A stretch of DNA of 63,626 bases, filler included, from Dugesia japonica (taxonomy: Eukaryota), in assembly GCA_001938525.1 (NCBI GenBank). It is 6 parts of 6 records of this genome, joined end to end, with 100 filler letters (N's around TTAATTAATTAA, not from the genome) between each part and the next. Parts side by side here need not be neighbours in the genome. Positions count along the whole stretch, not along the records: positions 1 to 10,445 come from MQRL01304890.1; 5 more parts are not named here. One strand, given 5' to 3'. The translations under genes and the position numbers were made by a program. Under the pieces are notes generated by a model. That model had not been told where the DNA came from, did not search any database, and saw nothing but the letters and a program-made list of their open reading frames with translations. This document shows positions 1 to 42,330 of this stretch, one piece after another; position 1 is the stretch's first letter, and each line of letters opens with the position of its first letter.

Positions 1-54
1 CGGCCAGAAAATAAAAATAAAACAAAGACACCGATGTCAGGTGCTCCCCTAAAA

Positions 55-200
55 ATAACTGCCAATCATGGCACCAAAATCCATAGAAAAATTATGAAAA
101 TCAGTGCTAGCACCAATAGAATCAGAGAAGAGCTGTTCTAAAAATACTTGGCAAATCTAAGCCTAGTAGGGGTGTCCAGAAAATCATATATAAGGAACCC
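55..200 (+). promoter_or_regulatory. CCAAT array plus TATA promoter of copy A
   Basis: CCAAT at 62 and 113, variant GCAAAT at 151, TATATAAG at 187; same spacing as copies C and E. Confidence 0.7.
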
Positions 201-814
201 CGGTTTTAGACAAAAAATCTTAACAATTATAACAACTCTAACAGTCCAATCTACGTGTGATTCACGAAAATCTATAAGCACTTCAGTAGTTCTGTTAACA
301 GAGAAGAAAATATTAAGTTATCAATTATCGCGCAGCTGCTGTCCAAATAGTTGAATAAATCGAAACAAGTGGGATAATAATTAAACGAAGCAAATAAATT
401 GATCAACTTTTCAGAGTATAAAAAATTTACAAGGGTTCGAGTTAAGAAACTATCTACTCCCAACTAAAACGATTGCTCTCGTAGTACCCGTTGCTGGAAC
501 AGTGCACAGATCGAGTAAATTTATTCAATATTCTGTGGATACCTATAACAGTAATTTTTCATTTTATGTTTATATTATGATTCCCATAATTGTCNNNNNN
601 NNNNNNNNNNNNNNNNNTATTAATCGTATTTTACAAGAATTTTTTTTTGTGTCTCTAAATACTTACCATAAAATTAATTTCAATAAACTGAGTGTATGTT
701 ATTTACAATTGTCAGTACACTACTTATAAAACTTTAAACCATCTGAAAATAAAACATATATATTGCCAACCCCAGTATTAAATCAGTAATAACGTAACTA
801 ACTAGTTGATATTT

Positions 815-1165
815 CATAAAACTCTTATTAAATGAATTCCATAATTTGAATTTATAGTATATATTATAAGAAAGTCTAAAGCAACTAAATCGCTGATAAT
901 TAATAAAACTCTTATTAACTAATTTCTATAACTGGAATTTATACTATATATGATAAGAAAGTCTAACGTAAATGACTGGTTAGTAATTAATAAAACTCTT
1001 ATTAAATAATTTCGATAAGTTAAATTTATATTACATATTACAGGAAAGTCTAGCGTAAGTAAATAGCTGATAATTAGTAAAACCCTTACTAAATAAGGTC
1101 GATAATTTGAATTTACAGTATTATTACAAAAAAAAATATCTAACCGACTAAATGAAGAAGTTAAC
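815..1165. repeat. 87-bp tandem repeat, about 4 diverged units
   Basis: AAAAC(T/C)CTTA(T/C)TAA recurs at about 818, 905, 992 and 1079. Confidence 0.85.
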
Positions 1166-2402
1166 AAACATTAATTCTAGTACAAAATTTATTTTTTAGA
1201 AAAACATCTAGTAAACCACTGATAACTCCATGAGTAATGAATAATAATTTCCCGAAGCAGTGGTTTACCACAATGAGGTTAGTATAATAGTCATCTAGTG
1301 ACACCGACAAATAAATTAACCAGTAATCACTATTAGCATACCTGAATATCACTTCATAAGGAAACAAATCAACAATTCCCGCTAAAATGTACAAACGAAA
1401 CAAAATTCCAAGAGAAAAATGGTAGAATTATTTATTTCATTAGATCCTGAATAACATACTACTAAAAGATAATAATAAATGACATATACAAATTTCAATA
1501 TACCCGAATGTAGATTTCTAAGGAAAGCCTCAATAAACCACATTAAGTATGCAAGAACTAAAATCTATCAAACAAATCATCGGAATCATTTATTATAAAA
1601 CATTTACGAATAATATATTTGAAACAGAAATATATTTTAATGATTGACCTATGCAAATCACGTTATGACTACATGTAAATTCCCGTTGTGGTGAGAAAAC
1701 TGTCTCGACACNNAAACTCGGAATTTCTCTCAAATAAATAATTTTTGTTGACATGGCTACGGCCTTGAGGGTAACCAAGGGCAACACAGGTTTGGCGAAA
1801 ATTTCAATTAATAAAAACGAGATACATTGGGACCAACAATAAGTATACAAACTAATCAGTAGGGTTGAATTTATTTAAAATTAATAACATCTTTTGCAAG
1901 ATCATTAGGTGCAATCCACAATGCGGCTGGAGTCTACCGGCTATTAAAAGCTTAAAATTCATNNNNNNNNNNNNNNNNNNNNNNNNNNNNNNNNNNNNNN
2001 NNNNNNNNNNNNNNNNNNNNNNNNNNNNNNNNNNNNNNNNNNNNNNNNNNNNNNNNNNNNNNNNNNNNNNNNNNNNNNNNNNNNNNNNNNNNNNNNNNNN
2101 NNNNNNNNNNNNNNNNNNNNNNNNNNNNNNNNNNNNNNNNNNNNNNNNNNNNNNTGGTATTAATAATAATAATGATATTAAAGGATACTAATAGTGATAA
2201 TGATGATGATAGTGATAATAAACGATTCTAATAATAATAATAATGATAATAAATAACGCCGATAATAACCATGGTAATAATCAATAGTGATAATACTAAT
2301 ATTAATAATAATAATCAAGTAGAATGATTCCCCTGGCCCACTCCTCTTCTAAATAATTAGATATTTTACTTGCGAATTTGCAGTAACAATTTTATTTCAG
2401 CA

Positions 2403-2585
2403 ATGACGGCCCGGCTAAGAAATATGCTGAGATGGATCAGGAAACAACGCCAGGTGGCCAGGAATAAACAATTAATCGCACATCTCCTAACATCCGGGGC
2501 CGTGGAACACCACGACGAGACGGACCTACAATGTTTCGTCGAGATGTTTCCCCTAGTACGTAAAATAGACTTAGATGGAGAATAA
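2403..2585 (+). CDS. Cassette ORF1, 60-aa protein of unknown function
   Basis: ATG 2 nt after acceptor TTTCAG|; homologs in copies B, C and D share EHxDET(D/G)LxC. Confidence 0.75.
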   Translation: MTARLRNMLRWIRKQRQVARNKQLIAHLLTSGAVEHHDETDLQCFVEMFPLVRKIDLDGE

Positions 2586-2781
2586 CCCCTTTTCTAGACC
2601 GAATCTCCAGCCACATGAGGGTCACCTACAGCTCCAATCAGTTACCCTACCATCTGGCAATTGTGTTTTAATGTTTTCTTGAAATAAAGCAATATAGGTG
2701 TTATTTACATGTTTCTTATTGCCACTTACTTCTGTTGTTAAAAGATCTATGTTAAGCAGTTATATTTCATTTTTTTAGATA

Positions 2782-3200
2782 ATGAACTACAAATGGGAGG
2801 TTCTGTGGGATCGAGTTAACCAACGCACCGTTTTCAAGCGTTACGTTAACCCTTATGACCGCAATGCAGACCTCATGGATGACTATTCAAATCTACCCCC
2901 GAGGACGTAGAACGCGAAAAAGAATGGGCAGCCGCGGAACGCCGAGCTTACCGCGAGTGGGATGGTCCCGACAGAAGTCGCGAAGTGTTGCACCGCGTCA
3001 CGTCGGTCGACCCAATAACGAATCAGGTTACTGTCCATTGGCAAGAGGGACCCTCCTTGATCCCATGTCCACCTGGACACATGTCACGGGGTACCGCTTT
3101 CCTAATCGACACAGAAAATCATGTGTAGTAACTCAAGAAACAAACAAGTGGTGGTTCGACTAAACATGCTGAACCGCTGACATGATCATCCCTCCACATT
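2782..3200 (+). pseudogene. Cassette ORF2 (NPxxRxA / WxGP family), frameshifted
   Basis: MNYKWEVLWDRVNQRTVFKRYVNPYDRNAD...; frameshift in the C-run near 2900, then EREKEWAAAERRAYREWDGPDRSRE; aligns with copy D 24989-25370; 3' end approximate. Confidence 0.75.
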
Positions 3201-3385
3201 CATGAACTTAGATACCAGTGCGTTCTCTTGATATAATTGAGTTTATCGTATTTAATAAAAAAGAAAAAACTTGTCTTCTATGAGTTGTTCTGATTGCTTC
3301 CGGAATTTGTTAATAGTATATCTCCAACGAACTACCTTTTAAGTAAAAGAAAATTTATCATATCTTCGTTGTAGATTTTGTTCTC

Positions 3386-3802
3386 ATGGATCATATCTGG
3401 ACTGTGACCACTGATGTACGAACCAGATTATCCACTTTCCGGAAATACCGGAATCCCCACAATCGAAATGCAGGGGTGTTGGTAGACAACTCCAATATAT
3501 CCCCCGAGCTAGCCGCTGAATATCGCAGTTGGGACGCAGATAAACGGGAAGCATACTATCAGTGGCGGGGTCCCATGCCAGACCGACCATATTATCCTCC
3601 ATCTCCTCACATTGACGCTGCTTCCCCACTATTGCCACAAATCGAACGAGTGTGGACAGAGAGTCCCACAGTGTTTGGATTTGCCACTACTCAGTTACCC
3701 TCCTACGAGCACCTGTCGTCATTTGTGCAGAATAACTTATGGAGCGTGCGTAACTCCCTTGGTAACGCAAATAACGAGAACGTTTCCAGAGGAAACTTGT
3801 GA
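3386..3802 (+). CDS. Cassette ORF3, intact 138-aa paralog of ORF2
   Basis: Open frame after acceptor TTGTAG| at 3374; shares FRKYRNPHNRNAG, DxSN, WxGP and LWxVR with the other copies. Confidence 0.8.
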   Translation: MDHIWTVTTDVRTRLSTFRKYRNPHNRNAGVLVDNSNISPELAAEYRSWDADKREAYYQWRGPMPDRPYYPPSPHIDAASPLLPQIERVWTESPTVFGFATTQLPSYEHLSSFVQNNLWSVRNSLGNANNENVSRGNL

Positions 3803-3957
3803 TCTCTACCCTGTTATACTTGTAGTTAATGTAAAGTTTCGTGTCTATTAATTGTCTTATTCCCTTATTGTAAATTAAATAGTATGAACAAGACCTTGGC
3901 TGTCCTATTACATAATTATCATGTTCACAAGCCTTAATCATATACTATCTCTTTTAG

Positions 3958-4325
3958 TGCACTCTTCGTTAAATCGTCCGCCGGCCCCGACCAAGAAAGT
4001 GCGGGAAGATAGTGAGGACATAGAGATGTCCTGGAGTTTATATCGCCTGGCCAAACGGCTTTGGGAGGCCGATGTGGCGACCGCAAATGCCAAAGTGAAG
4101 CGATATAAAAACAAATGTGCCAGTGTTTGAGAGGAATTGAGACTTGCACAGGAACAGGAACGAGCATGGAAAGCTCAAGTCGAATCTTTTGCAGAGATGA
4201 TCCGGTCCAGCCATGACCGAGAAAATAAACTGGTTAAGTATATTCTGTTGCTTAAGGAGAAATCTTATCTTGAACCCCTTATGATCGATAAGAGTACACA
4301 AACAAAAAACGTGTCTCGCCCATGA
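3958..4325 (+). pseudogene. Cassette ORF4, coiled-coil protein with NLS-like KKVR and DKSTQT motif; one in-frame stop
   Basis: Starts AG|TG CAC; in-frame TGA at 4128 lies where copy D has Arg; homologs at 10344, 24781 and 5815. Confidence 0.75.
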
Positions 4326-4445
4326 TCCTGTGTTTATGTAAAAATAAATATCACTTTTGGTTATTCGGTCACTTTTGAATTTAAACTTTTGATGATTGTA
4401 GAATTGTTATATCTCTGCATCTTCTTAATGATTTTTCTATTTTAG

Positions 4446-4828
4446 TGCCTAGAATCCAATTTCCTAATAGTTTAAGGCGCTGTCACCGTCTCTTACGCCT
4501 CCTCCTCGTCGAACGACATCTGAAAAGAAAAGCAGATAAGGCTTTGTTGAAACATCTCGATCAACGAGATCGATTAATAAAAAAATTAGATCTAGTGATT
4601 AAAAAGCAATCAGACTTTGCGGCACAGACTAAGGCCTTGGAGGCGGAAAACAAACTTTTACTACAACGAAAGGTTAACTTCTTGAAGCAATATATCGCTG
4701 ATCTGTCGCGCGAACTGGGAAATCCAAATATATCTCAGTGAGATGAGAACGATGATGTAGCGATGTTTAATTTTGTCGTCACTACCCCTGACCAATGGCT
4801 GGATCCAGAAGCCTTGGATTTATTGTAA
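4446..4828 (+). pseudogene. Cassette ORF5, basic coiled-coil protein with acidic/aromatic tail; one in-frame stop
   Basis: Starts AG|TG CCT; TGA at 4739 lies where copy D has Trp; aligns along its length with 23935-24296. Confidence 0.75.
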
Positions 4829-5778
4829 CTATGTTGTTATCAAATAAACATTTCGATGAGAATTATAAAGATTTTTAATTATCACCAAATAACAGTAGGG
4901 AAAATATATAGAACCCGAACCAAAGGTTTATTGGTGAGCNNNNNNNNNNNNNNNNNNNNNNNNNNNNNNNNNNNNNNNNNNNNNNNNNNNNNNNNNNNNN
5001 NNNAAATTCTTGAAAGGGTTCCCCTGAGGACTGTTTTTCCCCAGTCATTTTTGTCCAAACTCAGGTGAACCCCAACATAATAATAAACGATAATTTAAGC
5101 CTTTTTAAGGGGTTGAGGAATCATGCGAATAAAATAGTGCGAATACAATATTATTAATGATACGTTGACGATCCTAAGAGCGATAGTAACGAATGAATAA
5201 GTGTGATCGCTATAATACCGATATAGATGGTAACTGTATTATTATTTAATTTAATGATAAGGAATACATTTTTTAAGGAACAAATATCCATAAAAAACAT
5301 TAAAAAATCAGATGAAATTATTAATAACATAATTACAATGATAACAAATAAAAAAAGATAACCTACTCTTAACTCATAACTGTGTTGGTTCGAAATATAA
5401 ACAGGAATTCTTCTGTAGACAGGAAAGGCTTCAGCTTTCTTCATGGTGATACGTAGAATGACATGAATTTGTAAATATTTTTGAATAGTACGGCTTGATT
5501 TTCTTCTCGTATAATAGAACGAATATTGAGATTGAGATTAAAAGGAATGTATTAAAATTTTTCTATCTTCGTTGTCTTCTTGATTGGTTATTTTCGAAGA
5601 TGATGAATAAAACGACGAATAATTAGTTACTAATTTTACTCGCTTTAAATACTGGTTGAGACAAGTGGCAAGCAGCACAAATTGGGCAATTTTAGGATTT
5701 TGAATTTAATTGTGCTAGTATGAGAATTATCAACTAAACTGGCTTTGATGATGTCTTATTGTCGCAATTTGGGTGAAA

Positions 5779-7089
5779 CTTGGTTGGAGCTGGGGTCGAT
5801 TTAACGAGGAATGCACTAAAAGAAAATATAATAAAAATCATTGCTTTTTATCGACTTGGCAGCCGATTTACCGATATCTACCCAACCCTATTTAAAGTAT
5901 AAAAAACAGAATACAATATTAAAGATAATCCTCTCAATGAATTAATGAGAATATTAAGACTACTTAAACACTTATTTATTAAGGGAAAACATTTAAAATC
6001 ATAAAATTATCAGGATTCCGGAGTAGTATTGTTAAGCGGGGCAGTGTTTTTCGCATCTTCCACCCCGGAAGGCTCCCTAACCTCCCAGAGCATATTAGCT
6101 ATGAAGGCCTGGACTACTGGTGGGAGAGCTGGAGGTTGGCAATGGAATGGAGTAGCGTGGTTACGCTCAGGGCCATTCCACTGACGATAGTTCAGCCGCT
6201 CTCCGAAGCTCTGAATACGAGCTACTGCCGCTTCAACAGGGGAAAGATTGGATCTATCTACTAAGATCTCGGCGTCCCGCTGGTAGGGATTATGATGCCG
6301 TCGAAAAATCATTCGACGCGTTTTCCTATCAATAACTCTCCCATATGGATTCCATCCTAAGATTAAAAGGAAAATATAGTAAAACTCGAATAACCCTTCA
6401 TAAGAAAACAATAAACACTTAAATGAATAGTCAATATGCAACGCTAAATTTTATTCGAAAATCCACTTTATCAACCAAATAAATGTCATTCTTCATCTAG
6501 ATCTACCTTCCCTTCAAAAAGAAACATCTTGGAGAGACAACAGAGGTCAGTCTCGTCCGGATGTTCAACTCTTCCTTTTGTCAGTACGTGAGCCGTCAGT
6601 TGCTTGGACCGACTAATTTGTCGTTGCTTTTTAATCCAACGCAGTGCGTGATACAAATGAAATCATTAATCATAGTCCTTAACCCTTGTTTTATTTCCCA
6701 GAACAAATCGCTGTCGTCTATTAATAAAATGCGGATTATATCCTGAAAAAGCTAATCAATAAGGGGTTTAAATATGTGCATAACAATTTCGTTAGAAGAA
6801 TTAAACGGTTCTAAAATGATTAATCGTAGATATACTATGTGGCCTAATAATAACGAACAATAGGGCTAAAGTTAACGTAATAATGATAACACTAATCATC
6901 ATGGTGCGCGATGACCCAATAATACCATGGGTGTCAGGAATAATAGTGTTAATACCCATGATGGTCATAATCAATCGACTACCACCACAGATAATATTAA
7001 ACCTTCCTGATGCTCTCACTATGTAGAATAAATGGCTCCTCTGAATTTTAGGACTAAAAACAATATGATGTTTGGCATCGTAATTATAC
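5779..7089 (-). mobile_element. Cassette element copy B, internal fragment
   Basis: ORF1 homolog about 6486-6668, ORF2/3 homolog 6010-6355 with frameshifted start, first codons of ORF4 at 5815-5779. Confidence 0.8.
6010..6355 (-). pseudogene. ORF2/3-family homolog in copy B
   Basis: TTAG|G ATG GAA TCC ATA TGG, then frameshift into VIDRKTRRMIFRRHHNPYQRDAEILVDRSNL...WNGPER...LWEVR. Confidence 0.75.
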
Positions 7090-7484
7090 TTTTGGGGCGA
7101 AACACCCAGAGGAACGATAATCCAAGTTAAAAAGGGTCACAAATGACCAGTACCAAATTAAAGAACCAGTGAGGAAGCCATAATGAAAAAACCAGTCAAT
7201 ATTAAATAAGAAATCTAAAAGATCAAGTTCAATGTGATTAATTATGGAAATCACAAAATTAATAAAATTATGAAAGAAAATAAAAATCAAATGAAGAAAT
7301 AAATGCAAGAAAATAATAATTAATTTTAACGGAAAAATTAATTAAATTTGAAGTAAAACCGGTTTTTGGTAAATAATTATGGTCAGGAAAGTCGGAGAGA
7401 GTCCGGTGAAGAAAATTCAAGAAGAGAACAGCAAGTAAGAAAAACTTACCATCTTCCAGAGGGTTGTTATGGGGTCCACAAGAT

Positions 7485-7692
7485 CGGACCAATAGGAGGC
7501 CTAAAAATAAAAATAATACAAAGAAAAAACCATCAAATGGTTCTCTAAAAATAGTTGCCAATTAGAGTTCTAAAACTCTGTAAAAATTTTGGAATCATGG
7601 CACGAAATCCAATAAGATTGAATTAATCCAAATTAAAAATAATTGGCCAATGCCAGACAAGTTGGGGTGCCTCGGAAATCGTATAAAAGGAC
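7485..7692 (+). promoter_or_regulatory. CCAAT x4 plus TATA promoter of copy C
   Basis: CCAAT at 7489, 7558, 7609, 7647; TATAAAA at 7682. Confidence 0.75.
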
Positions 7693-9408
7693 CCCTTGGT
7701 TTTAGCAGAAAAAAACAAAACAAAATTTTTTGCATATTCACATACGCAAAGAACTCCGAAAAACATCCATTACAACTTATCCAAATCCGAGAATCAACAA
7801 GGAAATTAGCTATATTTCGAGATTAATACGCATCGATTGTATCATTCGATATCAGAAACTAAGAGTAAATTAAAATTTCTGTGGGTAATATTTCTTATTT
7901 CAAGAAGAAGGAAAAGAATCTAATACCAGAACCATAATCCGAATTCGCCAACTCGATTATCCACTAGCTACCCGAAACCCGTTGCAGAAAATTCTTGTTC
8001 GATAACTCAAAGTAATGTACTATTTCATTTATAGCAATGTTTTATTATATGAAAAAACCGAATATTACTCAAGATAATAAATATATTTGTGCTCAACTTC
8101 TTAAATTGTTAGCTTATAAATTCATAACAATTAATATTTACTAAATGAAATTTTGAGCCGGAATACTGTCAGTATTTAATCTTTGTTCCGGTGTAGTCAA
8201 TTTATAAAAAGATAGTAAAAATAAGAGTAACTTCGGCTTAAAATCTTTTATAATAAGTAAAAATAAACAAAATAAACCAACTAAATTTTATTTGTTATAA
8301 AAACCTAACCCGTAAAATTTAGGAGTCAAAGTGGAAACAGCTTATTCAGGGACCAGTTTTAAATTATAAATGAACCAGCAATTCAGCAGATCATATCGCT
8401 GCAATATTCGATTTAAATTCCACGGCGTCACAATAATGGAGTTGCTGAATCCAATAAATCCTTTCGTTCAGTTAATTGATGATTAAACGACAATCCATGG
8501 ACAAGGCAGGAGATTTGTGATTCCATTAAAAAATTCCGCTTGCGAGTGAATTGAGTTGAGAAACTCATAATTACCGACAGAATGGATAAATTTCATAAAT
8601 TGCAGAGTTGTAGATAGTAAATAATTACTACCTGAATTCACTTCACGAACCCGTGTGTGTCTGTCATCACATTAGTATAGAAATTGAAAAATATTTTGCT
8701 ATGATAAGGAAGTATGTTATACACCCTATCACATTGATTGATAATTAGGAAACAGCAACTCGTTACACACCTAGCCTGATAAATCCGTTTGAAATATTTT
8801 AACTGTTGTTAAGGGGGTAAAATCACTACGCAACGAGTCGCGCAACAATTCAAAATAAAAACCAATTTCAAACTTCTACGATTATTAACATTCTCATTAA
8901 ATTTTGTGAATATGGCTGCCCTGAATATCTTTATTATTATCACTATTAATTTTATTTTTATTGNNNNNNNNNNNNNNNNNNNNNNNNNNNNNNNNNNNNN
9001 NNNNNNNNNNNNNNNNNNNNNNNNNNNNNNNNNNNNNNNNNNNNNNNNNNNNNNNNNNNNNNNNNNNNNNNNNNNNNNNNNNNNNNNNNNNNNNNNNNNN
9101 NNGATTCTCTTAAGCATTATTACCATTATTATTAACATCACTATTATTCTCATCTTTATTATTATTTTCGTGAATGGTATTATAGCTCGTAGGATTATGA
9201 TTGCCATTATTATTAATTCACAATGGGTATTATCACCTCTAGAGCTACCACCACCCCGTCCAAACTATTCTTAGCATCAGTATTGTCATCCATGCTGTGA
9301 CTTGTATTATTGTCATTATTAATACCACTAATGTTACCTGAAGGTAACGTCGATTTGATTTTTTTGAAAATAAAACATGAATGATGTTCTCATTCCTGTA
9401 GTTAGCTC

Positions 9409-9590
9409 ATGCCTGCCGAATTACATAGGACTCTGCGGAAGATCTTGAAACAGACAAAACATTCGTAATAAACGGTTAATAGCCCACTTGATAACCCATG
9501 GAAGGATAGAGCATCCGGATGAAACAGACTTGTGCTGTTTTTGCCGAGATGTTTTCCATGGACAGGAAGGTAGGTATAGACGAGGAATGA
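9409..9590 (+). pseudogene. ORF1 homolog in copy C, two frameshifts
   Basis: MPAELHRTLRKILKQ / RQNIRNKRLIAHLITHGRIEHPDETDLCCF / AEMFSMDRKVGIDEE. Confidence 0.75.
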
Positions 9591-9728
9591 TTCATTTCTC
9601 CGGTGTCAGAGATTGTCGCGTATTTACGTGTGATCAGCAATAAAATGACTTACTCCCCACTTTTAACTCACTTATTTTATCTTAATATTATAAAATTGAA
9701 ATTTTATTAGCCTTACCTTAATCTAAGG

Positions 9729-10085
9729 ATGGATTCAATATGGATACGCGTCGTCGATAGGAGGACCCGGCGACTAATACTCCGTCGTTATTACAATCCA
9801 CATAACCGGGATGCGGGTATTTTGACAGATCGGTCAAACTTACCACCGGTCGAATCAATCATTGGCCGCATTAACGATTTCAGAGAGCAGCAACGATATC
9901 AAACGTGGACAGGCCCGGACCGCACCGTCGCGACCTCGTTTTCATATCAGTCTACAACCCCTCCCCCAGCTCCGGCGATATAAGCGTTCATCGCTAATCT
10001 CCTTTGGGGAGTCAGGGATCCGAATGGGGTAACGGATATTGAAAATACCGCCCCCAACACTGATAACGTTATTAATCAATCTTGA
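9729..10085 (+). pseudogene. ORF2/3-family homolog in copy C, premature stop at 9981
   Basis: Frame continues past TAA as AFIANLLWGVRDPNG..., matching copy B. Confidence 0.75.
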
Positions 10086-10445
10086 CATTTTGTTGTTTTG
10101 TTGAGTAATAAACAAGTGTTATTATCCTCGGATACTTTCTAACTTTTCGTGTGGTTAAGCGTATTGAGAAGAGGATTTAATATTGATTTTTTTTATTTTT
10201 CTCGTATAATCATAAAGTAATATTTATACCTAGAGGGTTCTTTTCAATGTTCATTTAATAATAGAAGTAATCATACTAATTTTGTGTCTCGTCTTAGACA
10301 ATATCAGACAAAGTGTAATACCTTAACTGTACTTTTATTTCAGTGCATTCGTCCTTAAATAGATCCCATGGGCCAAATAAGAAATTACGAGAGGATAGTG
10401 AGGATATGGAACTCACTTGGGATCTTTATAAACTGGCTAAAAGGC

Positions 10446-10545
10446 NNNNNNNNNNNNNNNNNNNNNNNNNNNNNNNNNNNNNNNNNNNNTTAATTAATTA
10501 ANNNNNNNNNNNNNNNNNNNNNNNNNNNNNNNNNNNNNNNNNNNN
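10446..10545. other. Artificial scaffold linker (also about 21971-22070, 31026-31145, 39919-40018, 51898-51997)
   Basis: N-run + TTAATTAATTAA (stops in all six frames) + N-run, five times. Confidence 0.95.
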
Positions 10546-10763: not shown

Positions 10764-11930
10764 ATGTCAGCGACTGTTCAATTTAATCTTGGATCTAATC
10801 ACAACACGAGCGATGAATCGACAGATAATCATCCAGTTTGTCATACGAAACCTAGTAAACCTCATTTGAAACGCAGTTTTTCATTGGTACCAGAAAGATT
10901 AGATACCAAAGCCAAAAACAACGTTTGTAACGAACAGCTTTTAACTGGATGTGAAATAGTTTTGGAGATTTTCTCAATTGTTCTAGTTGTTATTCTATTT
11001 CCGTTCTCGTTGATTTTTTCTTTGAAAGTTATAGCTCAATACCAAAGAGCTGTTGTTTTTCGTCTGGGAAAATTGATAGCACGAGGACCGTTGGGACCGG
11101 GATTAATATTTATTCTTCCGTGTTTGGATTCCATGAAACGAATCGATTTGAGAACTTTGACATTTGATGTTCCTACTCAAGAAGTGTTGACGAGAGATTC
11201 TGTAACTGTTGCTGTCGACGCTGTAGTTTATTATCGTATTTTTGATCCGGTTATGTCAGTTGTAAATGTTGAAGATGCAAATCGTTCGACTAGGTTATTA
11301 GCTCAAACAACTTTGAGAAACGTTCTTGGAACGGTGGATCTATATTCGTTGTTGACAGACCGAGAAGATATTGCATCAAGTATGCAAGAAACTTTAGACA
11401 TGGCGACAGATGCTTGGGGCATGAAAGTAGAAAGAGTAGAAGTGAAAGATGTAAGACTTCCAATGCAATTACAAAGAGCTATGGCGGCAGAAGCTGAAGC
11501 AACGAGAGAAGCTAAAGCTAAAGTAATAGCTGCAGAAGGTGAACAGAAATCATCAAAAGCTTTAAGGTTAGCAGCAGAAGAATTATATAAATGCCCAATT
11601 TCCTTACAGCTAAGATATTTGCAAACATTAAATAGTATTTCTGCAGAAAAAAATTCAACAATAATATTTCCATTACCGATTGATATTTTAGCACATTTTC
11701 ATGATAATTCAAATAATCTGGAACCATTTGTGCCACAATCATCACCTGGTAATAGTTCTCAGTCAACAAAATTGATTAATCCGCCATCAGTTCGTGTACA
11801 ATTAGCACAAAAAGCTAGTAATTTACATACAAATCGTAAAGGCTATCATTTAAATCATTTCTCTACATCTCCGTCATCATCAACAATCTCCGGTGGACAT
11901 GACTATACCAGTTCTGATTGTACTGTTTAA
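10764..11930 (+). CDS. Stomatin / band 7 (SPFH) family membrane protein, MEC-2-like, intronless
   Basis: Hydrophobic hairpin with FP, YQRAVVFRLG, GPGLIFILPC, EVLTRDSVTVAVDAVVYYRI, LLAQTTLRNVLG, QLRYLQTL. Confidence 0.95.
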   Translation: MSATVQFNLGSNHNTSDESTDNHPVCHTKPSKPHLKRSFSLVPERLDTKAKNNVCNEQLLTGCEIVLEIFSIVLVVILFPFSLIFSLKVIAQYQRAVVFRLGKLIARGPLGPGLIFILPCLDSMKRIDLRTLTFDVPTQEVLTRDSVTVAVDAVVYYRIFDPVMSVVNVEDANRSTRLLAQTTLRNVLGTVDLYSLLTDREDIASSMQETLDMATDAWGMKVERVEVKDVRLPMQLQRAMAAEAEATREAKAKVIAAEGEQKSSKALRLAAEELYKCPISLQLRYLQTLNSISAEKNSTIIFPLPIDILAHFHDNSNNLEPFVPQSSPGNSSQSTKLINPPSVRVQLAQKASNLHTNRKGYHLNHFSTSPSSSTISGGHDYTSSDCTV

Positions 11931-12459: not shown

Positions 12460-13310
12460 TATAAAGAAGTCCAAATAGAGTTTCTAAAATAAATTTTATG
12501 ACAATATGGCATCATCCCCCTCGTTTTAAATTGCTTTAGCCATTCTATACTTTGAACTATATCTTTACCGTCAGAATTTCTAAATTTAAAGCTATTATTG
12601 TGTATTTTATTTATAAGTTTATAAGGTCCTCCTGTTTATCCTGTTTATCTTTTATGTCTATTTTTACCAGCACATTATCACCAATTTTGAAGTGTCTATA
12701 AATTCTATTATCATTATTGTAATTATTAATCATATTAGCACTATTGATAACTTCTTTTCTTTCGCACCGAACGTCATTCAACAATTTAATATATTCTTAT
12801 GAATCTTCAAAAGATGGAATTTGATGCATAAACATTTCTTTGTTTATCTTTTTGCCAAAAACAATTTCTGCTAGGCTACATTTTAAACTTTTTTGAGTTG
12901 TCGCATTCAAAGCAAATTCTATATGTTGTAGTGCATCTTACCAATTTTTATGTAATTGGTCCTTTAATTTACAAGATAGCTATTCTCTTATTGTACGAAA
13001 TTGTCTTTCTATTTGTCCATTGGCTTGGTGATGATAGGGACTTGAATAAATAATATCAAAATAAAATCTTTCTGACAAATTTCGTAATAAACTTGATTCG
13101 AAACCTTTGCCGCCATCTATATGAATTGTTTTAGGGGTCCTAAATTTTAAAATTCAATCATTTAAACGTAATTTCGTGATGATTTTTTCATCTTGTGATG
13201 TAACAGCCTTTAAATTCGTATATTTACTAAATTGATCAATTATAGCAAAAATGTATTTCTTTCCAGTTAATGTAGTCTAAACAAAATCTGATATATCAAA
13301 ATTAATACAA
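12460..13310 (-). mobile_element. Ty3/gypsy integrase remnant with polypurine tract and start of 3' LTR
   Basis: KKYIFAIIDQFSKY..TPKTIHIDGGKGFES..SSPYHHQANGQIERQFRTI with stops; minus-strand GAGGGGGA then TG near 12513. Confidence 0.85.
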
Positions 13311-21244: not shown

Positions 21245-21970
21245 AGAAGAAAGCAAGGCCAAGGTCCCAAATTATAAGCGGAAGGCTACTAGCAAAGAAA
21301 GCTAATGAAGAACAGTAGTCACATGGAATAATATAATAATCATATACGAATAATCAATCATGGACAGAATATGCTAAAATACCGGATAAAAGGCCAAAAG
21401 AAAAAGAAGATGAGTATGAAGACCTTGGATTAACCAAGTTAGCTCACACTAAGGCCAATAATTAAAGGGAATTATCATAATAAAAATAAACGGCAGAAGA
21501 AATTAATATCAGTAAATAATTATTTATTGCAGAAAAATTAATTAATTTAAAAGGAAAATAAATTGAAATTGGTCGAAAATTGGTTTTTGGTGATTACCTC
21601 TACTTTGCATAATCACAGCGTCCTCGGGTAAGAAAATCTGAGAAGAATTGCTGACGAAGCATTAAGAATTGGTTAATAGAAAATGTTACCACCATCCAGA
21701 AGGTTTTCTCAGGGATTTGAAGATTGGGCCAATAAGAGATCTGAAAATAAAAATAAAACATAGGAATGACAATCACATGTCACTCCAAAAATAGACGCCA
21801 ATGGCGTAACAGAAAATAGTCAAAATTTTGTAAAAATCCAAGGCTACACCAATAGAATTTAAGAAATTTGAATTAAAATTAGACAGCCAATAGCAACGAG
21901 TTGCATTTGGTAAGCTATATAAGCCCTTGGAAAATTAGTATAAAAAACAACAATTATTTTCATAAACTAA
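21245..21970 (+). mobile_element. Cassette element copy E (5' and promoter portion, cut by scaffold end)
   Basis: Colinear with the reverse complement of 27400-28110; CCAAT at 21729, 21798, 21849, 21887; TATATAA at 21916. Confidence 0.85.
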
Positions 21971-22745
21971 NNNNNNNNNNNNNNNNNNNNNNNNNNNNNN
22001 NNNNNNNNNNNNNNTTAATTAATTAANNNNNNNNNNNNNNNNNNNNNNNNNNNNNNNNNNNNNNNNNNNNTACATGGTTTTACAAAATGAAATACAAAAA
22101 TTTAAATAAGAATTGACAACTATAAATAATCTGATATTTATAAAAAACTTTATTTAATTGAAAAAGTATTGAATTTTTTTACTGGAAAATTTAATGTAAT
22201 AGACTGTATATATAGATATAATTTCCTAAATTGTTACTTCTTTCCGCGAATGGGAGGATGCGCGATCATGTGCTACTATCTATCTACTTTTTTATAACAG
22301 CTTTTGTTAGGGAACCGGCACGAATGTCTATGTGAATGTAATTGACTAAATTATAGTTTTTGGACCTTGATTCTGTATAGGACCTGAGAAGTTTTTCGAA
22401 TGATTTTCAACTGCTGTTAAATAAAGAATCACATAGTTTAACGAAAATAATTAAATATTTGTAATGCAATATATTGAATATAACAAATAGTATTATATTT
22501 ACTTAATTATTTGTAAGCTATGCTCATAATAAATATCTTTAAAATAGTTTTTGAGTAATCAATATTATAGGTTTTAAAGAAAGAAATGCAATTTTTGGAA
22601 TTTTTATTTTTCATGATGACTTAAAATAAAATTTTGTTTTACTAATCTAAAATGGGTCATAATTTTAAAGCCCTTATTAAAAGAATATAGTCAAATTTTT
22701 ATTTAAGTTAATTAGTGAAAATTTACCCTCGCATTTATAGAAAAG

Positions 22746-23090: not shown

Positions 23091-23934
23091 TTAAGTAATT
23101 AGCAAAATAATATTAAAACGAATTATTGAAATAAATAAAATATTGNNNNNNNNNNNNNTAAAAATTCAGTAAAATCAATCTTTAGTAATATTTTCAATAC
23201 ACTGTTATATTTAAATTTATAAAGGATTATCATGCCAATTATTTATTGAGCAAAAAAACAAAACAATAAAAACATACAACGAAAGAATCATATATTGATA
23301 AAGTAAATGAAATACATGTATTCAATTAAATTAGATCAAACATTAAATATAAATATTAAATAAGTTTGAAACCAACTAAAAAACGNAGTGCGATAGTTCA
23401 TAAATGAAAATACTGATTTGATAATTAATTTAAGTAAAGAAAATGAAGGACTTATAACAATTATTTCTTTAAAAATTACAAAGGTAAAATTTTAGAGAAC
23501 ATTGCTCGATTACTGAAAATATTTTAATGTTATAAGTGCTTTAAAGAAGCAATGATAATTGATGGAGAAACAATGGAATTTAGGTAGAGAAGAGCACGTT
23601 TATATAGTAATTAAAAAACTATAAAGTAATATTTATTATGAAAATAAAATTAATGAGTTACTTGCATTTAAAGAAGTAATAATGTTGGGGTTCCACCTGA
23701 GTTGACGGTGAAGAGAAACGCTGGCCGGAGAAAAACGGCCCTCTGGGGATCCCCCTCAAGAATTTAAATCTAACGTCCCTAGGTTAGATATTCAGTACAG
23801 AGGGGTTGACCTCGAACTTTTACTGGAGGTTTCCACTCGTACATATTTAGTTTGGGTTCGTATTCATTTCCCTATTACTGTAGTCATCAAATAAATAAGC
23901 AAAATGTTAATATTAATATGTATTAGTTTAAAAA

Positions 23935-24296
23935 TTACACCTCCTNGAGAGCACCCTGGTCTAACCACTGGGTAGGCTNTTCTGAAATAAAATCAAATAC
24001 AGCGTTGTGATCATTATCATCCCATTGTAACCATGACGCGTTACCTAGTTGGCGGGATAGATCTGCGATGTACTTTTTTAAAAAATCAATCTTATTTTGA
24101 AGGAGTTGTTTCGTTTGTTCCGCGAGATCTCCCTGCTTCTTAACGATGATGCCCAGCCTTTTTATTAGTTTGTTGTGTTGTGCAAGGTGTTTGAGCAAGG
24201 CACGTTCATTCTGGCGTTTGAGATTACGTTCTACTAGAAGTCGCCGAATTAGTCTATGGCAACGCTTTAAACTGTTGGGAAAGATAATTCGTGGCA
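23935..24296 (-). CDS. Cassette ORF5 (copy D)
   Basis: AG|TG CCA CGA; PRIIFPNSLKRCHRLIRRLLVER...KIDFLKKYIADLSRQLGN...QWLD. Confidence 0.8.
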
Positions 24297-24423
24297 CTAA
24301 ACAAGAAACATCATTAAACAATTCATTTCTTTTAAAATAGCTGAAATATTAATTAAGTAAATAATTCGGAAAGAAGAATTTAATTAAAAAAGAAAATCAT
24401 TTACTTAGGAAACCGACAGATAT

Positions 24424-24781
24424 TAAGGTCGTGATGTCTGAATNNNNNNNNNNNNNNNNNNNNNNNNNNNNNNNNNNNNNNNNNNNNNNNNNNNNNNNNN
24501 NNNNNNNNNNNNNNNNNNNNNNNNNNNNNNNNNNNNNNTGACCTCGGTGAAAGACTCTATCTGCGCCTTTCATACTCTCTCCTGGGTGTGTGACGCTTCA
24601 GCCTCCTTCCTAAATGCGGTGCATTTGGTCTTATATCGCTTTACTTTCGCCTCCGCCGAAGCAGTATTGGCCTCCCACCGTCGCTTAGCAAGGTGATAAA
24701 GGTCCCAGGTCATCTCCTGGTCCTCACTAGTCTCACGTACTTTCTTAGTTGGTGCTGAGCGTCTATTTAGTGAAGAATGCA
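24424..24781 (-). pseudogene. Cassette ORF4 (copy D), partly in an N gap
   Basis: AG|TG CAT TCT; HSSLNRRSAPTKKVRETSED...AKVKRYKTKC; stop at 24570; ends ..TSRP* like copy A. Confidence 0.75.
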
Positions 24782-24988
24782 CTGAAAGGAGAGATTATTA
24801 AATTATTAATATATAATGGAAAATCATTTAAAAAGAGTTTCGTATAAAAAATGTAACGGGTGTTATGTAAATTAACGCGTGCGAAAAATCAGACCAAGAA
24901 GTAGTTAAAAACAATCACGAACCGTAATTTTTATTAGCATTAAAATTGACGTCAGGAGCCATCAATGACAATCAAGAGTTATTGTTTT

Positions 24989-25370
24989 CTACAACATCAG
25001 CATTTGCATTACTTCCCATAACGTGTCACCAATGGATGCACTCAATACAGAGAAGGGTGGAAGGTGAGCCGCTGAGACTGGGATCATTGATGGGCCTTCC
25101 CTCCAATCACTGATAGTACTAAACTCCTCGTTTTGAATTGGGGGAAAAGCGGTGACTGTGAAGTAATTCCCGGGACCAATCTGGCCCTGCCCACTCATAA
25201 TAGGCGCGCCGCTCGCCCGCGTCCCATTCTCTTTCATTCTTTGCGTCTTCCTTTGACAAGTTAGTGTAGTCTGTGAACACCCCAGCATTACGGTCAGGGG
25301 GGTTCTTATATCTTTTAAAAATCAACCGGCCGGTACGCCGATCATAAAGGGTTTTCCATTTATAGTCCAT
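24989..25370 (-). pseudogene. Cassette ORF2 (copy D), one frameshift near 25140
   Basis: MDYKWKTLYDRRTGRLIFKRYKNPPDRNAG...WAGPD / WREGPSMIP...LWEV. Confidence 0.78.
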
Positions 25371-25512
25371 CTCACAATCCTGTAATATTATCAAATATAA
25401 AATATCATTAAGAAAAAGAAGTATTTGTTTAATGTGGCCCTTATCAGCATGAACACGTAGAAGCATTTAGTTATTTTTTATTTAAATAAACACGCAAATC
25501 AGATATTTTTAA

Positions 25513-25707
25513 TTAAGCTGGTTCGGNTTCTTTATCTAGATCCACGTCAAACTTTAGCGGGAACAACTCGGCGAAACATTGTAAGCCTGTTTCGTCCGGA
25601 TGTTCGATCTTACCACGAGATAAGATGTGAGCCACTAATTGTCTTAAACGGACTGTTCTACGTTGCCTCCGAATCTGTTTGAGGGTATCTCGTAACTTGG
25701 TTGACAT
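25513..25707 (-). CDS. Cassette ORF1 (copy D)
   Basis: TTTTAG|AAT ATG; EHPDETGLQCFAELFP. Confidence 0.8.
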   Translation of the reverse strand: MSTKLRDTLKQIRRQRRTVRLRQLVAHILSRGKIEHPDETGLQCFAELFPLKFDVDLDKEXEPA

Positions 25708-28700
25708 ATTCTAAAATTAAGATATAAATTAAGGCCTACCTAATTTTAGAATTACTCGGCATGAGATGCAATATCGGCAAAAAGATACTATGCGTGAACA
25801 GCCGGTGCTTGCATTATAATAATTAGTAAGTCGAAATAATAAACAGGTTCTTATATAATTTTAATTGGGAGTGGTATGTCGTGTATGAGCGATCTGTTAG
25901 TCTGATGAGATTAGGAGGATTAATGTTGATACTACTAATGAACCGATCTGGTCATGATTTCATATTGTTAACCGATTCATTATATTATTAAATAAATGGA
26001 AATATCAATAGTAAACGATGATAATGATAAATGAGTAAATACCTATTTGAATTTTAATAAACAATGATCATGTGACCGATCTTTATCTGCGATAAATAAT
26101 AATACTCAAATTTGAGAGAATAAATTCATAATAAGAACATTTTTTTAATAGACATTAACACAATCTCACTAATAGACAGGAGTGACTTGGCTTTAATTTT
26201 TATTTATTGAGATCCAATGACTGGTGGTAATCTCACCGAGTAAAAGTTTCCACAGTTCCGACGAAACTGGCTTATCGAGCATCAAAGTGTCGCTCAAACG
26301 TTAATGAACTAATTATTTTCCCGGGCAACGAAATCGAATTCCTTCATAGATAAACCTTCCAGCTACATAACGTGATTTTCTGTTTTCAAGTATATAATAC
26401 GACTGACAGAGACCGTTGTTAGATTATTTCCCAGTATATGAAGTTATAGAAATGTGCCATAATATCGCGGCTGGATGAATTCCAACGTTATCCACTAAAT
26501 GACCAGAATCAAACCTATTATAAATGATTCTTTTCATTTTTCTACCGGAACATACTCATCGAAAATTTTGCATAAGCTATTGGTTTATGGTATTAATAAA
26601 GTATCGTTATTGTTGTCCTTTTGCAACTCTTATAGCTAAAATGAGTGAGTCAGAGTTTATTCTCGCTTGCGTGTGTGTGTGCAGCCAGGTCACACAATTA
26701 TTAGTCAATTCATTTATCGATTTTGGATTGTCATCGTGTGTTGAGAGTAGAAGTCGTTGTTATCAAATGATGAGATATGTTAGATTATTACTGAACTAGC
26801 TTGTTGGCATATTCTACTAGTTGAGGGTAACAAGTGCTTTATAAGTCGACTGACTTTATCAAAATTTTGTAACAAATATTGGTGGGGATTCCAACAATAA
26901 CTGCTGGTTTTTGTTTAAATTAACGAATGCAGATATTTATATTACAGATAAATAAACTATTAGAGTAATAAGTAGTGACATAAAATTTTATTAATCACAT
27001 AAAAGCCAAGCCTCACCTATCCATAATATGTTAACATAGACAAAATTTGTTATCAATCATATGAATTTTGCAATTACANNNNNNNNNNNNNNNNNNNNNN
27101 NNNNNNNNNNNNNNNNNNNNNNNNNNNNNNNNNNNNNNNNNNNNNNNNNNNNNNNNNNNNNNNNNNNNNNNNNNNNNNNNNNNNNNNTTCAAACGACACT
27201 ATCCTTTTCCTGGTTATCAAAATAATTTTCTTCTGCAGGTGAAAATACACTGATTAATGAAATGCTAGTTAAAATCGTGATCTTAGAATGGTTAATTAAC
27301 GGCTTAGTTTCGCACAGATCTTTCCTTGGAATGTTAATCGTTTTACGTATAGGTATACGAACACAAGTTTATTAATTGACTGATGATTTTATTATATTTT
27401 TGTCTGAATTTTGAAGCCCTTTTATAGCTTTCAAAATGCAACCCGGCATGATCCTCATTGGACAGTTATTTTTATTTCAAATTTCTGTGTTGACTTGAAT
27501 TTCCAAGAATTTTTCATCGTTTTCTGTTACTCTATTTGTGCCTATTTTTGGAGCACCTTGTGACTTTCTTGCCTTTGTTCTATTTTTCTTTTCTGGCCCC
27601 TCATTGGCACATTTTCTCAACCCTTGTAGGGACTTCCCTGATGATGCCACGATTTTCAGGTTGCCAAATACTATTACCCCAGATCTTTTTCTTTCTAGAT
27701 TTTCTTGCTACGGGTTTCTGCGATTATCCTGAGCAGAGATATTCATAGAAAACTGATTTTCGTCTAATTTAAATTTATTTTATTTCAAAATTAATAAATA
27801 TTTTCCCGATAATTAATTATTTTTCAGTAATACTTTTCTTGCCTTTTATTACTAATTTCATAATTTCTTTTGATTATTGTAATTGATGTGGATCAGATTT
27901 GTTGAACCAAGGTATTCATATCCATCTTCTTTGTATTTTGATCTTTTATTCCTTATAATTTAGCCATACTGGTTTTTTAAAATTATTTTTCTTGTGGCTT
28001 TGATGTAATTTTTATAACTCTTCCGTCGTAACTACGTGGTTCTTGATTGACTTTCTTTTCGACCCCCCTTTCTCCATCATTTCTTCGTCTTGGGCCCTTG
28101 GCTTTGTTTTTTCTCTACAGATCGGGTGTTTCACCCCAACAATAATACTAATGAAGAAAATAATAAAAGATGTGAGATAATTACCTAGAACAATAGAAAA
28201 ATNNNNNNNNNNNNNNNNNNNNNNNNNNNNNNNNNNNNNNNNNNNNNNNNNNNNNNNNNNNNNNNNNNNNNNNNNNNNNNNNNNNNNNNNNNNNNNNNNN
28301 NNNNNNNNNNNNNNNNNNNNNNNNNNNNNNNNNNNNNNNNNNNNNNNNNNNNNNNNNNNNNNNNNNNNNNNNNNNNNNNNNNNNNTTTCTGCAATTATAT
28401 AAATTTCATCTGAATATTTAATGTATGTCATTTCTCAAATTGTGTTTTTATTTTATGTATTTTGTGATGAAATTCAATTTTTCACTCCCATTTTCCTATA
28501 GAGATAATATAAAATTTTTTTTTACTGATACTCATTTAATTAACCACTAGACAATTATAATGTGACAAGTTGAGTTAATTCTAAAATAAATAAATATAAA
28601 TTACAAAGTCTAGAAATACAGGTCAAATTGTGTGTTTAGATACTAAAATTCTAAAGTTTGAAAATAAGTAATGGGTTNNNNNNNNNNNNNNNNNNNNNNN

Positions 28701-31025: not shown

Positions 31026-31319
31026 AATTTTACTCAGGAAGAAACNNNNNNNNNNNNNNNNNNNNNNNNNNNNNNNNNNNNNNNNNNNNTTAATTAATTA
31101 ANNNNNNNNNNNNNNNNNNNNNNNNNNNNNNNNNNNNNNNNNNNNAAGTTTATTATTGATCTAAAAAAAGCAGATGGAAATTTAAAATTAATTTTTCAAT
31201 ATGCAAGTAAAATTGATAAAAAAAAATACATAAAATGGGCATATTAATACAATACCTTCTAATCCTTTCAATTGCTATAAAGTTAGATGTTTCAAAAATG
31301 AAAAGATTATTGAACATAT

Positions 31320-35129: not shown

Positions 35130-35760
35130 TTGTAATTCCGAAACTTTTGTAAATCGACTTATAATATTAAAACGATCACTTAAATATTCATAACTCTCTG
35201 CTCTTTCCAAACGTTTTGCATCTTTAAAGCGATTCTATTCTTCTAGATCTTATTCATGTCGGAATTTAGATTTCTATTTGATGTGCTATTATAAATCTGT
35301 TACTTTGATATGGTCCTTCATATAACAGCCCGCTTTTTTTGACTGTGTGGTTTTACTTGCACTAATAACCATTGTCCTCTCTTAAATTATCTTTTACCCT
35401 GTTTCTTTCTCACTACATTTCTCTTTTATTGATGTCATAATCATATCCCTCAATGATCGGATCATTCGTTCTATTAAACCGTTGGCCTGGTGTTGATGCG
35501 GGTAACTGAATTCCTGTACAATTACAATTCTTCCTGGCTTCTTTCTTATCACTTGACTTTCAAACCCTTTTCTTCTGTCCGTCAGAATGGTCATTGGTTT
35601 CCAAAAATGGTATGACCATTTGTTTAGAATAACCTCAAAGATAGTTTTTTCATTCATCTTTGCAATACAGTTAACGCAGGATACCCATCAAACACTCAGT
35701 GGTCTATGTAAATGGATGTGTATGGATCAATAAATATATAATGCCCTTCTACATCATTTG
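35130..35760 (-). mobile_element. Ty3/gypsy integrase remnant
   Basis: KPMTILTDRRKGFES..SYPHQHQANGLIERMIRSLRDMI. Confidence 0.8.
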
Positions 35761-39918: not shown

Positions 39919-40407
39919 NNNNNNNNNNNNNNNNNNNNNNNNNNNNNNNNNNNNNNNNNNNNTTAATTAATTAANNNNNNNNNNNNNNNNNNNNNNNNNN
40001 NNNNNNNNNNNNNNNNNNATATTTCGATTAACGAATAAGGTATGTCCACGATACTAGTTCATTTAGCGAAATCTCGTTTTCAGAGTTCAAAAAAATATGT
40101 TCAGAATAATAGATAACAAAATCTATCCAGTTTTTTTAATCTTTGAAGTTTCACTTAAAGATTTATTTTCGTAGAAGTTTATTCCGATTGTCATCTCAAA
40201 TAAAAACGAAAGTCTTTTACGTAAAGATTTGTTTATAATCAGAGTTATTTTAATTCTTTTCTGATCGAATTTAGAAAATAAAAATGACCACTTGTAAAAG
40301 ATCTCAATAATAAACTGACAACAAATATATCCAATAAATTACTTTAAATTAAATAAGTAACTTTGTCGACCTAAAACGAAATACTTTTGATTTCGTGTCG
40401 TATAGAG

Positions 40408-41048: not shown

Positions 41049-42330
41049 CAGGGTGTTCCAATTTAAGGTTATATTTTAAATTTAACTCCATTTATTTCTG
41101 TTTTGTTTTATTAAATCAATAATTGTTGAATAAGCAATAGTAATTCATGCATTTTTAAAAATGAATCGTTATACCATTGAATAAAGAGTATTTATGGTAA
41201 AAAANNNTTTTAAATACGGCGAAAGTTATGCCGAAGTTCGCAGAAAATTTAAGTTTGAATATGGAAGGGAAAGTTGTCCGTCACATGTGACAATTCAAAA
41301 AGTTATCAAACAGTTTATAAAAAGTGGCTCGATGAAAGATGAACGACGCCAATAATATCATAAAAAGTGGTCGCTCGGAAACAAATATTGCAGCTATAAG
41401 CTGTAGTGTGAGTGAGAAAACAAAAACGTCAATCCGTCNTCGTTCACAACAACTATCCATTCCAAGAACGACGTTATTCAGAATTTTGCACGAGGATCTT
41501 CATTTTAAGGCATTCAAGATTCAAATAACTCAACAAATAAAGCCGACAGACTTTGAAATACGCAGTAAATTTACTAAATGGGTCATTGAAAATATGCATG
41601 TAAATGAAACAATTTTCCTAAAAGTGATCTTTAGTGACGAAGCATATTTTGAACTAGAAGGCTTTGTGAACGCACAGAATTGTAGATTTGGTGCAATGAA
41701 AACACACATGAAATACTACAAAAACAATTCCATTCACCAAATGTAAATTTTTTGTGTGGTTTTTGGGAAGATGGTGTTATTGGTCCTTTTTTTGAGAATG
41801 AAGCTGGGAATTCTGTAACAGTTACCGGAGCTCGATATCGAAATATGATTGGAAAATTTNNNNNNNNNNNNNNNNNNNNNNNNNNNNNNNNNNNNNNNNN
41901 NNNNNNNNNNNNNNNNNNNNNNNNAACAATTACCCTTTTAAGAGAACGATTTGGTGAAAGATTAATTTCTCGAAATGCAAACATCAGTTGGCCGCCCAGA
42001 TCCTGCGATATAACGCCTCTAAATTTTTTCTTTTTGGGTAATTTAAAGGAAAAGGTGTATATTAGCGATCCTCAAACAATTGTTGATCTTAAGGAGAACA
42101 TTATGAAATTGGTGAAATTAAGCCCCAGTTGTGCCAAAATGTCATAGAAAACTTTTGTAAACGAATGGGTGCTTGCTATGCAGCAGCAGGATGTCACTTG
42201 CATGACATTATTTTTCATTGTTAAACCGGAATATATGTACTATCATTGTAAATAAATATATTGCTACATTTCATACCTTTAGCTTCTTTTATTGAAAATT
42301 TAAAACGTAACCTTAAATTGGAACACCCTG
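41049..42330 (+). mobile_element. Full-length decayed Tc1/mariner-superfamily transposon
   Basis: 23-bp perfect TIR CAGGGTGTTCCAATTTAAGGTTA; TA TSD; FSDEAYF and WPPRSCDITPLNFF motifs with frameshifts. Confidence 0.95.

Follow-up and report, generated by a model that had tools for sequence, protein, structure and literature searches.

Two small genes of a repeated 4.5-kb element in the genome of Dugesia japonica (GCA_001938525.1), referred to as ORF4 and ORF5, begin with TG placed directly behind a splice-acceptor-like AG, and this AG|TG pattern is real and goes beyond chance. The start codon of both genes is probably completed by splicing, the last A of a leader exon being joined to the TG (A|TG), as judged from comparison of the copies of the element. 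A single promoter of the element would give rise to an ATG-free leader exon, and this leader would be spliced to one among several downstream exons from putative donors at 514/515 and 8011/8012 in two of the copies. In ORF4 and ORF5, the TG would stand right behind the acceptor, the A of the ATG would be brought in by the upstream exon, and the ATG formed at the junction would initiate translation. The A of ORF4 would most likely derive from the leader, and that of ORF5 either from the leader or from a donor inside ORF4, which likewise ends in A. A splice-made ATG had been proposed in a preliminary description of this DNA; by comparison of the DNA copies, it accounts best for ORF4 and well for ORF5, but the donor, deduced from two diverged leaders, stays a candidate.

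The whole stretch of DNA analyzed here (the window; 63,626 nucleotides, filler included) consists of six unrelated contigs of AT-rich animal DNA placed end to end and joined by artificial linkers (44 N, TTAATTAATTAA, 44 N) at 10446-10545, 21971-22070, 31046-31145, 39919-40018, and 51898-51997, and distances spanning these linkers are meaningless. Self-comparison of the window revealed five related stretches of one repeated element, hereafter copies A to E, and all copy comparisons rest on these five, all within this window. Copy A (1..5077, + strand) has lost its 5′ end at the contig start and retains its 3′ end (CCCCAACA). Copy B (5779..7089, − strand) is partial: it holds ORF1, ORF2/3, and the beginning of ORF4 (AG|TG at 5815), which breaks off after about 13 codons. 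Copy C (7090..10445, + strand) comprises the 5′ end, a TATA box at 7682, an ATG-free leader, ORF1, ORF2/3, and the start of ORF4 at 10344, and is truncated by the contig end; at 7089/7090 it directly adjoins copy B, which runs the opposite way and has a truncated 5′ part, an arrangement suggestive of insertion of copy C into copy B. Copy D (23683..28141, − strand) is complete at 4,459 bp and carries ORF1, ORF2, ORF4 (24781), and ORF5 (24296). Copy E (21373..21970, + strand) is the promoter region alone, truncated by the contig end. The gene order is a long AT-rich stretch followed by ORF1, ORF2, ORF3 (in copy A only), ORF4, and ORF5. In copy A, all on the + strand, ORF1 occupies 2401..2585 (acceptor 2400/2401; own ATG at 2403), ORF2 2779..3128 (own ATG at 2782; frameshifted), ORF3 3375..3802 (own ATG at 3386), ORF4 3958..4325, and ORF5 4446..4828. 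ORF3 is a paralogue of ORF2, and copy A is the only copy in which both are present. ORF4 and ORF5 of copy A start with AG|TG and have one in-frame stop each, and an in-frame stop is also present in ORF4 of copy D. Protein identity between copies is 53-73% for ORF1, ORF4, and ORF5, and 35-45% for ORF2/3.

The T of AG|TG is located at 3958 (+), 5815 (−), 10344 (+), and 24781 (−) in ORF4, and at 4446 (+) and 24296 (−) in ORF5. The pattern, as claimed in the preliminary description, is present at six of six sites, all eight coordinates in that claim are correct, and a pyrimidine-rich tract ends in the AG at every one of the six. As background, TG follows a pyrimidine-rich YAG at 15 of 264 sites, and at 4 of 71 other such sites within the copies. 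ORF1 to ORF3 indeed possess their own ATG, which lies 1-11 nt behind the AG in all eight starts examined (ORF1 of copy B, having no clear start, is omitted), and none of these begins with TG. TG was accordingly found in 6/6 ATG-less starts versus 0/8 ATG-bearing ones (Fisher P 3e-4, a value overstated because the copies are related). Splicing in the organism can be gauged from the host RPL19 gene (55221-55860, + strand), identified by its match to solved ribosomes, whose 52-nt intron, of the ordinary GT-AG type, lies five coding bases past the start; the organism therefore splices conventionally.

Protein conservation had been said to start exactly at the junction, and this was borne out, since amino-acid selection is evident from the first codon behind the TG. 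With TG read as the second and third positions of a codon, comparison of the four copies over the first 7 codons of ORF4 gives 22 synonymous versus 5 non-synonymous pairwise codon differences, the 33 codons of ORF4 compared in three copies show 38 versus 26, and the 63 codons of ORF5 show 29 versus 22. The other two frames of ORF4 and ORF5 contain stops, and the unspliced frame is shut 4-23 codons upstream; copy A alone has an ATG in the unspliced frame, 12 codons upstream of ORF4. The accompanying statement that there is no conserved ATG holds for ORF5, in which none is usable (copy D lacks an ATG altogether, and copy A has none in its first 106 codons), but needs qualifying for ORF4, in which an in-frame ATG occurs at codon 24 (copies A and D) or codon 22 (copy C). 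That ORF4 begins at this internal ATG, the junction being untranslated, is very improbable: the ATG is in frame in all three copies, but its position varies among them, and the 18 codons preceding it accumulate 21 synonymous versus 14 non-synonymous differences with no stop. Furthermore, such a start is inapplicable to ORF5.

Four-fold sites are saturated between copies (identical at 3/16 for ORF4 of copies A and D, and at 1/14 for ORF5), and the G of TG is invariant in 4/4 ORF4 and 2/2 ORF5 copies; the G is therefore unlikely to be a freely varying third position in a normal Val or Leu codon. From these codon comparisons, the first codon of ORF4 and ORF5 would be ATG, or GTG serving as a start, and is unlikely to be anything else. 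A near-cognate GTG, read either from unspliced RNA (G of AG plus TG) or through a donor ending in G, would predict an equally invariant TG, a point that counts against A|TG. Such a donor would be conventional, G being the usual last exon base, and a candidate ending in G exists in copy C (TGG|GTAATA at 7884/7885), where it rivals the A-ending site, and further GT sites in the two leaders score equally; copy A, however, has no G-ending counterpart among its top-scoring sites. The pyrimidine tract and YAG at all six sites place T or C at position −3 of an unspliced GTG, and each site is preceded by 1-4 ATGs within 110-150 nt. Counted from the cap region, the full unspliced RNA of copy A would have 61 ATGs ahead of ORF4. 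A GTG start is improbable. The same 61 ATGs imply that ORF1 to ORF3 need splicing equally; the idea that the split start acts as a built-in expression switch was therefore overstated, and adds little.

Splice-made A|TG calls for an upstream exon ending in A, and the leader offers one. A promoter-like stretch of copy A (62..194, + strand) contains CCAAT boxes 125 and 74 nt 5′ of a TATA box (187-194), and a TATA box with 2-4 CCAAT boxes at similar spacing occurs in the sequence of 4/4 copies covering the region (A, C, D, and E), approximately 700 nt inward from the 5′ end of the element. The candidate leader exon of copy A (215..514, + strand) would end at the donor-like CGA|GTAAAT (514/515), and that of copy C at AAA|GTAATG (8011/8012, + strand); in copy D, the expected donor position falls inside an N gap (27079-27187). 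No ATG occurs in 300 nt of leader in copy A, 300 nt in copy C, and 208 nt up to the gap in copy D, versus 3.9, 2.5, and 3.1 ATGs, respectively, in shuffled leaders (P 0.006, 0.039, and 0.015; leader ends were set at the donors, which flatters the test for copies A and C) and about 5 ATGs per 300 nt in the long introns. The ATG-free leaders thus argue against a coding first exon and look like a non-coding leader. Acceptor-like sites within the leader, at 415 (+ strand, copy A) and 27232 (− strand, copy D), raise the possibility of an additional small intron in the leader.

Both donor-like sites exist as reported and have A as their last base; the TATA box is located 327 and 329 nt 5′ of them, and the GC content falls past them from 0.55 to 0.25 in copy A and from 0.40 to 0.20 in copy C. 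A motif common to both had also been put forward: a 9-mer is indeed shared (P ~0.011), but it sits 20 nt from the donor in one copy versus 26 nt in the other. Of the six top-scoring GT sites in the leaders of copies A and C, five end in A, which makes the conclusion less sensitive to the choice of donor; A is also the commonest base at that leader position. As donors, A|GTAAAT and A|GTAATG are of middling strength, and joining would place T (copy A) or C (copy C) at −3 of the ATG, a weak context. Only the leaders of copies A and C extend to a donor; their ends (last 80+20 nt) align no better than chance, 38 of 200 shuffles reaching the score, and global alignment does not bring the two donors into one column.

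A small coding exon hidden upstream, for example in an N gap, might instead supply the start, in which case xTG would be a normal codon in the interior of ORF4 and ORF5. Phase-1 introns are common, and N gaps lie in the relevant regions of copies A (595-617 and 1963-2154), C (8964-9102), and D (the gap named above). Nevertheless, the leaders are free of ATG in three copies, copy D is gapless from 27078 to ORF1 and has no small ORF in common with copies A or C, and the G does not vary although the wobble sites are saturated, so that such an exon appears quite improbable. A search of the long introns for conserved small ORFs found none, and ORF1 and ORF2/3 contain no donor-like phase-1 GT common to the copies. 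The long intron of copy A, and of copy A only, includes four tandem 87-nt units (790-1133, + strand). A low-complexity tract 5′ of ORF1 is AAT-rich in copy A (2155-2330, + strand) and ATT-rich in the sense of copies C (9103-9330, + strand), B (6800-7020, − strand), and D (25900-26050, − strand); the difference reflects either a local inversion or an assembly flip beside the N gap.

A coding upstream exon of phase 1, named in the preliminary description as contrary to its proposal, is a live case for ORF5 through a conserved donor within ORF4. The first 54 nt of ORF4 (to A 4011) may be joined to the ORF5 acceptor; ORF5 would then follow ORF4 as its second coding exon, with A|TG as an internal Met codon. 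This concerns ORF5 only, and ORF4 would still need a splice-made start. The donor-like A|GTGAGG (4011..4017, + strand, in copy A) is in phase 1 and in frame with the ORF5 acceptor, and it recurs at Ser codon 19 (the TG codon being codon 1) in 3/3 copies reaching that position, namely A, C (10397/10398), and D (24728/24727). Within the 3,534 nt of these ORFs, GTRAG is found just 6 times, and 4 of these instances lie at this spot. The implied introns measure 434 and 431 nt and join in frame, and the donor falls at the end of a predicted unstructured peptide, helix being predicted from residue 17 of the model. The shared N-terminal peptide would be basic and 18 residues long. Against this, the Ser-Glu-Asp residues encoded at the donor are themselves invariant, a shared GTRAG appears in 5.8% of synonymous shuffles with the first two codon bases held (free synonymous choice, at 0.14%, is too generous), and 6/11 two-fold columns nearby are identical in all three copies anyway. 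No RNA read contains the join, in a region of near-zero RNA coverage. The joining of ORF4 to ORF5 is therefore regarded as possible, on the unlikely side.

Flatworm spliced leaders do provide start codons, and trans-splicing of such a leader onto the ORF4 and ORF5 acceptors was considered and rejected. In the accessible text of one report, the last three bases of the flatworm spliced leader form a complete AUG (PMC9851317); a whole AUG joined to TG opens the wrong frame, in which a stop follows within 7 codons in 4/4 ORF4 copies and the two ORF5 copies contain 8 and 6 stops. Trans-splicing is hardly conceivable as the source of these starts.

RNA runs X23 and X24, which bear the same species label as the DNA runs, were mapped onto 1-10445 (90%) and 2345-4800 (80%). 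The former stretch received 16 and 177 reads (X23 and X24), nearly all partial and lying on a microsatellite and the 3′ end; none of the 12 joints listed starts from 514 or 8011, and none of the 22 loose ends listed out of 296 falls at an acceptor. The latter received 68 and 8 reads from the two runs, all partial; each of the 7 joints listed comes from a single contig, 3958 and 4446 are not among their positions, and none of the 20 loose ends listed out of 268 falls at an acceptor. RNA depth at the acceptors 3958 and 4446 is 0.3 or less, and the absence of junction reads there tests little. A joint at 4237-4452 was set aside: one of its sides has 23 letters, the intervening letters are not known, and most contigs differ at 4239. 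A few dozen RNA reads resemble ORF1 or ORF4 of other copies, such as 13 reads at 2514 whose loose part is like ORF1 of copy D, which suggests that the element family is transcribed at a low level and bears nothing on the junction.

The products of ORF4 and ORF5 are likely long helices forming coiled coils, and plausibly act as accessory regulators of the element. In the structural model of ORF4, the first 17 residues are basic and predicted to be unstructured, followed by a long predicted helix; a long helix is also predicted for ORF5. Pfam returned no family at cut-off for any ORF of the element (100-125 aa helical ORFs), protein library searches with ORF4 and ORF5 (near length, and a longer ORF5) gave 0 matches, exact protein look-up gave 0/6, and an atlas search with ORF4 gave no usable match. 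Scans of viral and metagenome contigs for the ORFs confirmed nothing. A profile search with ORF2/3 gave three matches, two driven by repeats and one real, a 94-aa relative (P0001; E 4.6e-19) on a 512-bp contig of another public assembly. Poly(A) hexamers lie within 170 nt 3′ of 11/12 ORF stops, an observation of no weight given 6.6 AATAAA per kb in the intron of the element. Contig depth over ORF4 4149-4240 and ORF1 2509-2590 (+ strand) is ~10x that of neighboring sequence, and most RNA reads fall there; these segments are the best-conserved cores of a family that is large and diverse.

The element itself is most likely a lone (solo) LTR of a gypsy-type (Ty3/gypsy) retrotransposon, because its TG...CA ends, 4-bp duplication, and promoter fit such an LTR. 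Copy D has 9-bp inverted ends, TGTTGGGGT...ACCCCAACA, of the TG...CA type (TGTNR), with which the 3′ end of copy A agrees and from which the 5′ end of copy C is off by one base. ATAA flanks copy D on both sides as a 4-bp duplication (in 1/1 complete copies; in AT-rich DNA, chance is not negligible). The flanks of copies A, C, and D are AT-rich DNA with no primer-binding site or polypurine tract, complete copy D has no long ORF, and no gag, pol, or env is found in the element. In contig run X1, 1,106 contigs resemble the copies, which indicates many relatives and is not a copy number; runs X1, X13, X14, and X20 cover non-coding parts and appear to consist of DNA reads. A search of 1-31000 against Rfam gave 0 matches. 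According to the accessible text of one report, Ginger1 and Ginger2 DNA transposons share TGTNR ends, a 4-bp target duplication, a size of 2.6-7 kb, and possible introns with the present element, and have inverted repeats of 40-270 bp and an integrase (PMC2836005). With inverted ends of 9 bp and no gypsy-like integrase found (no long ORF in copy D and no Pfam match), a Ginger identity is unlikely, although a non-autonomous form would still be compatible.

Other loci in the window include an intronless Band 7/stomatin gene of 388 aa (10764-11930, + strand; Pfam PF01145) and a broken retrotransposon of non-LTR type (45749-49283, − strand; RVT_1 1.4e-10, with a sub-threshold zf-RVT match). Transposase-like fragments at 41336-42147 (+ strand) and at 44959-45255, 49202-49627, and 50345-50692 (− strand) are presumably mariner-like and hAT-like. 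Two related integrase-like fragments (12983-13153 and 35397-35687, both − strand; 44% identical) give a weak rve_3 match and have no linkage to the 4.5-kb element.

A start codon made by splicing is, as a principle, already known and not new. In the env gene of Drosophila gypsy, splicing builds the start codon from AT on the donor side and G on the acceptor side, according to the accessible parts of the reports (PMC2585583; bioRxiv 10.1101/2023.08.03.551782). Judged from the same material, the present element resembles env of errantiviruses in the gypsy/springer subclade in that a retroelement gene lacking its own start would have its ATG completed from an upstream leader. Errantivirus env, as described there, is a single large gene behind gag-pol with an AT|G split and mapped junctions; the element described here, by contrast, would have an A|TG split, at two acceptors among 4-5 small helical genes, and contains no gag, pol, or env. 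In planarians, the giant gypsy-like elements Burro and GYPSM1 have long LTRs and accessory ORFs, as far as the accessible texts go (PMC6431247; PMC11410931; PMC8532177). They are large, abundant gypsy-type elements of an AT-rich animal genome, and the termini and length of the present element would fit an LTR of this kind; elements of this sort become de-repressed upon PIWI knock-down (PMC8532177). The descriptions, in their accessible parts, include no ORFs within LTRs and no splice-made start (PMC6431247), and the accessible text of PMC13524379 makes no mention of splicing. Host genes whose start codon is interrupted by an intron are, in the accessible account, relatively rare single cases in which ATG is split in phase 1 or 2 by a GT-AG intron (PMC1626468); unlike in these, one donor would here serve several acceptors. 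A literature search, with most subscription papers and Repbase outside its coverage, found nothing describing this gene cassette.

Gene finders overlook ORFs whose ATG is formed by splicing, and with an ATG that would exist only after splicing, the conserved small proteins of ORF4 and ORF5 would therefore be invisible in annotation. If the element is an LTR, it would possess its own alternatively spliced accessory genes, like those of complex retroviruses, in an invertebrate gypsy-type element. The layout recalls the adenovirus major late unit, in which one non-coding leader is spliced to alternative downstream ORFs, and EBNA-LP of EBV, whose AUG is made by one splice choice; these are DNA viruses, no sequence relation to the element is shown, and the likeness is one of layout only. 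We speculate that the terminal repeat harbors a unit of the adenovirus-late type, with one leader for 4-5 small genes and with ORF4 and ORF5 locked to A-ending donors, namely that of the leader and the one inside ORF4, which would add the shared basic peptide to ORF5; host exons, mostly G-ending, could not start them. This full arrangement is unlikely, and a specific role of the TG acceptors in admitting A-ending donors only is a candidate within it. Compared with gypsy, splice-made A|TG in ORF4 and ORF5 would carry the env trick of a split start over to a multi-gene cassette.
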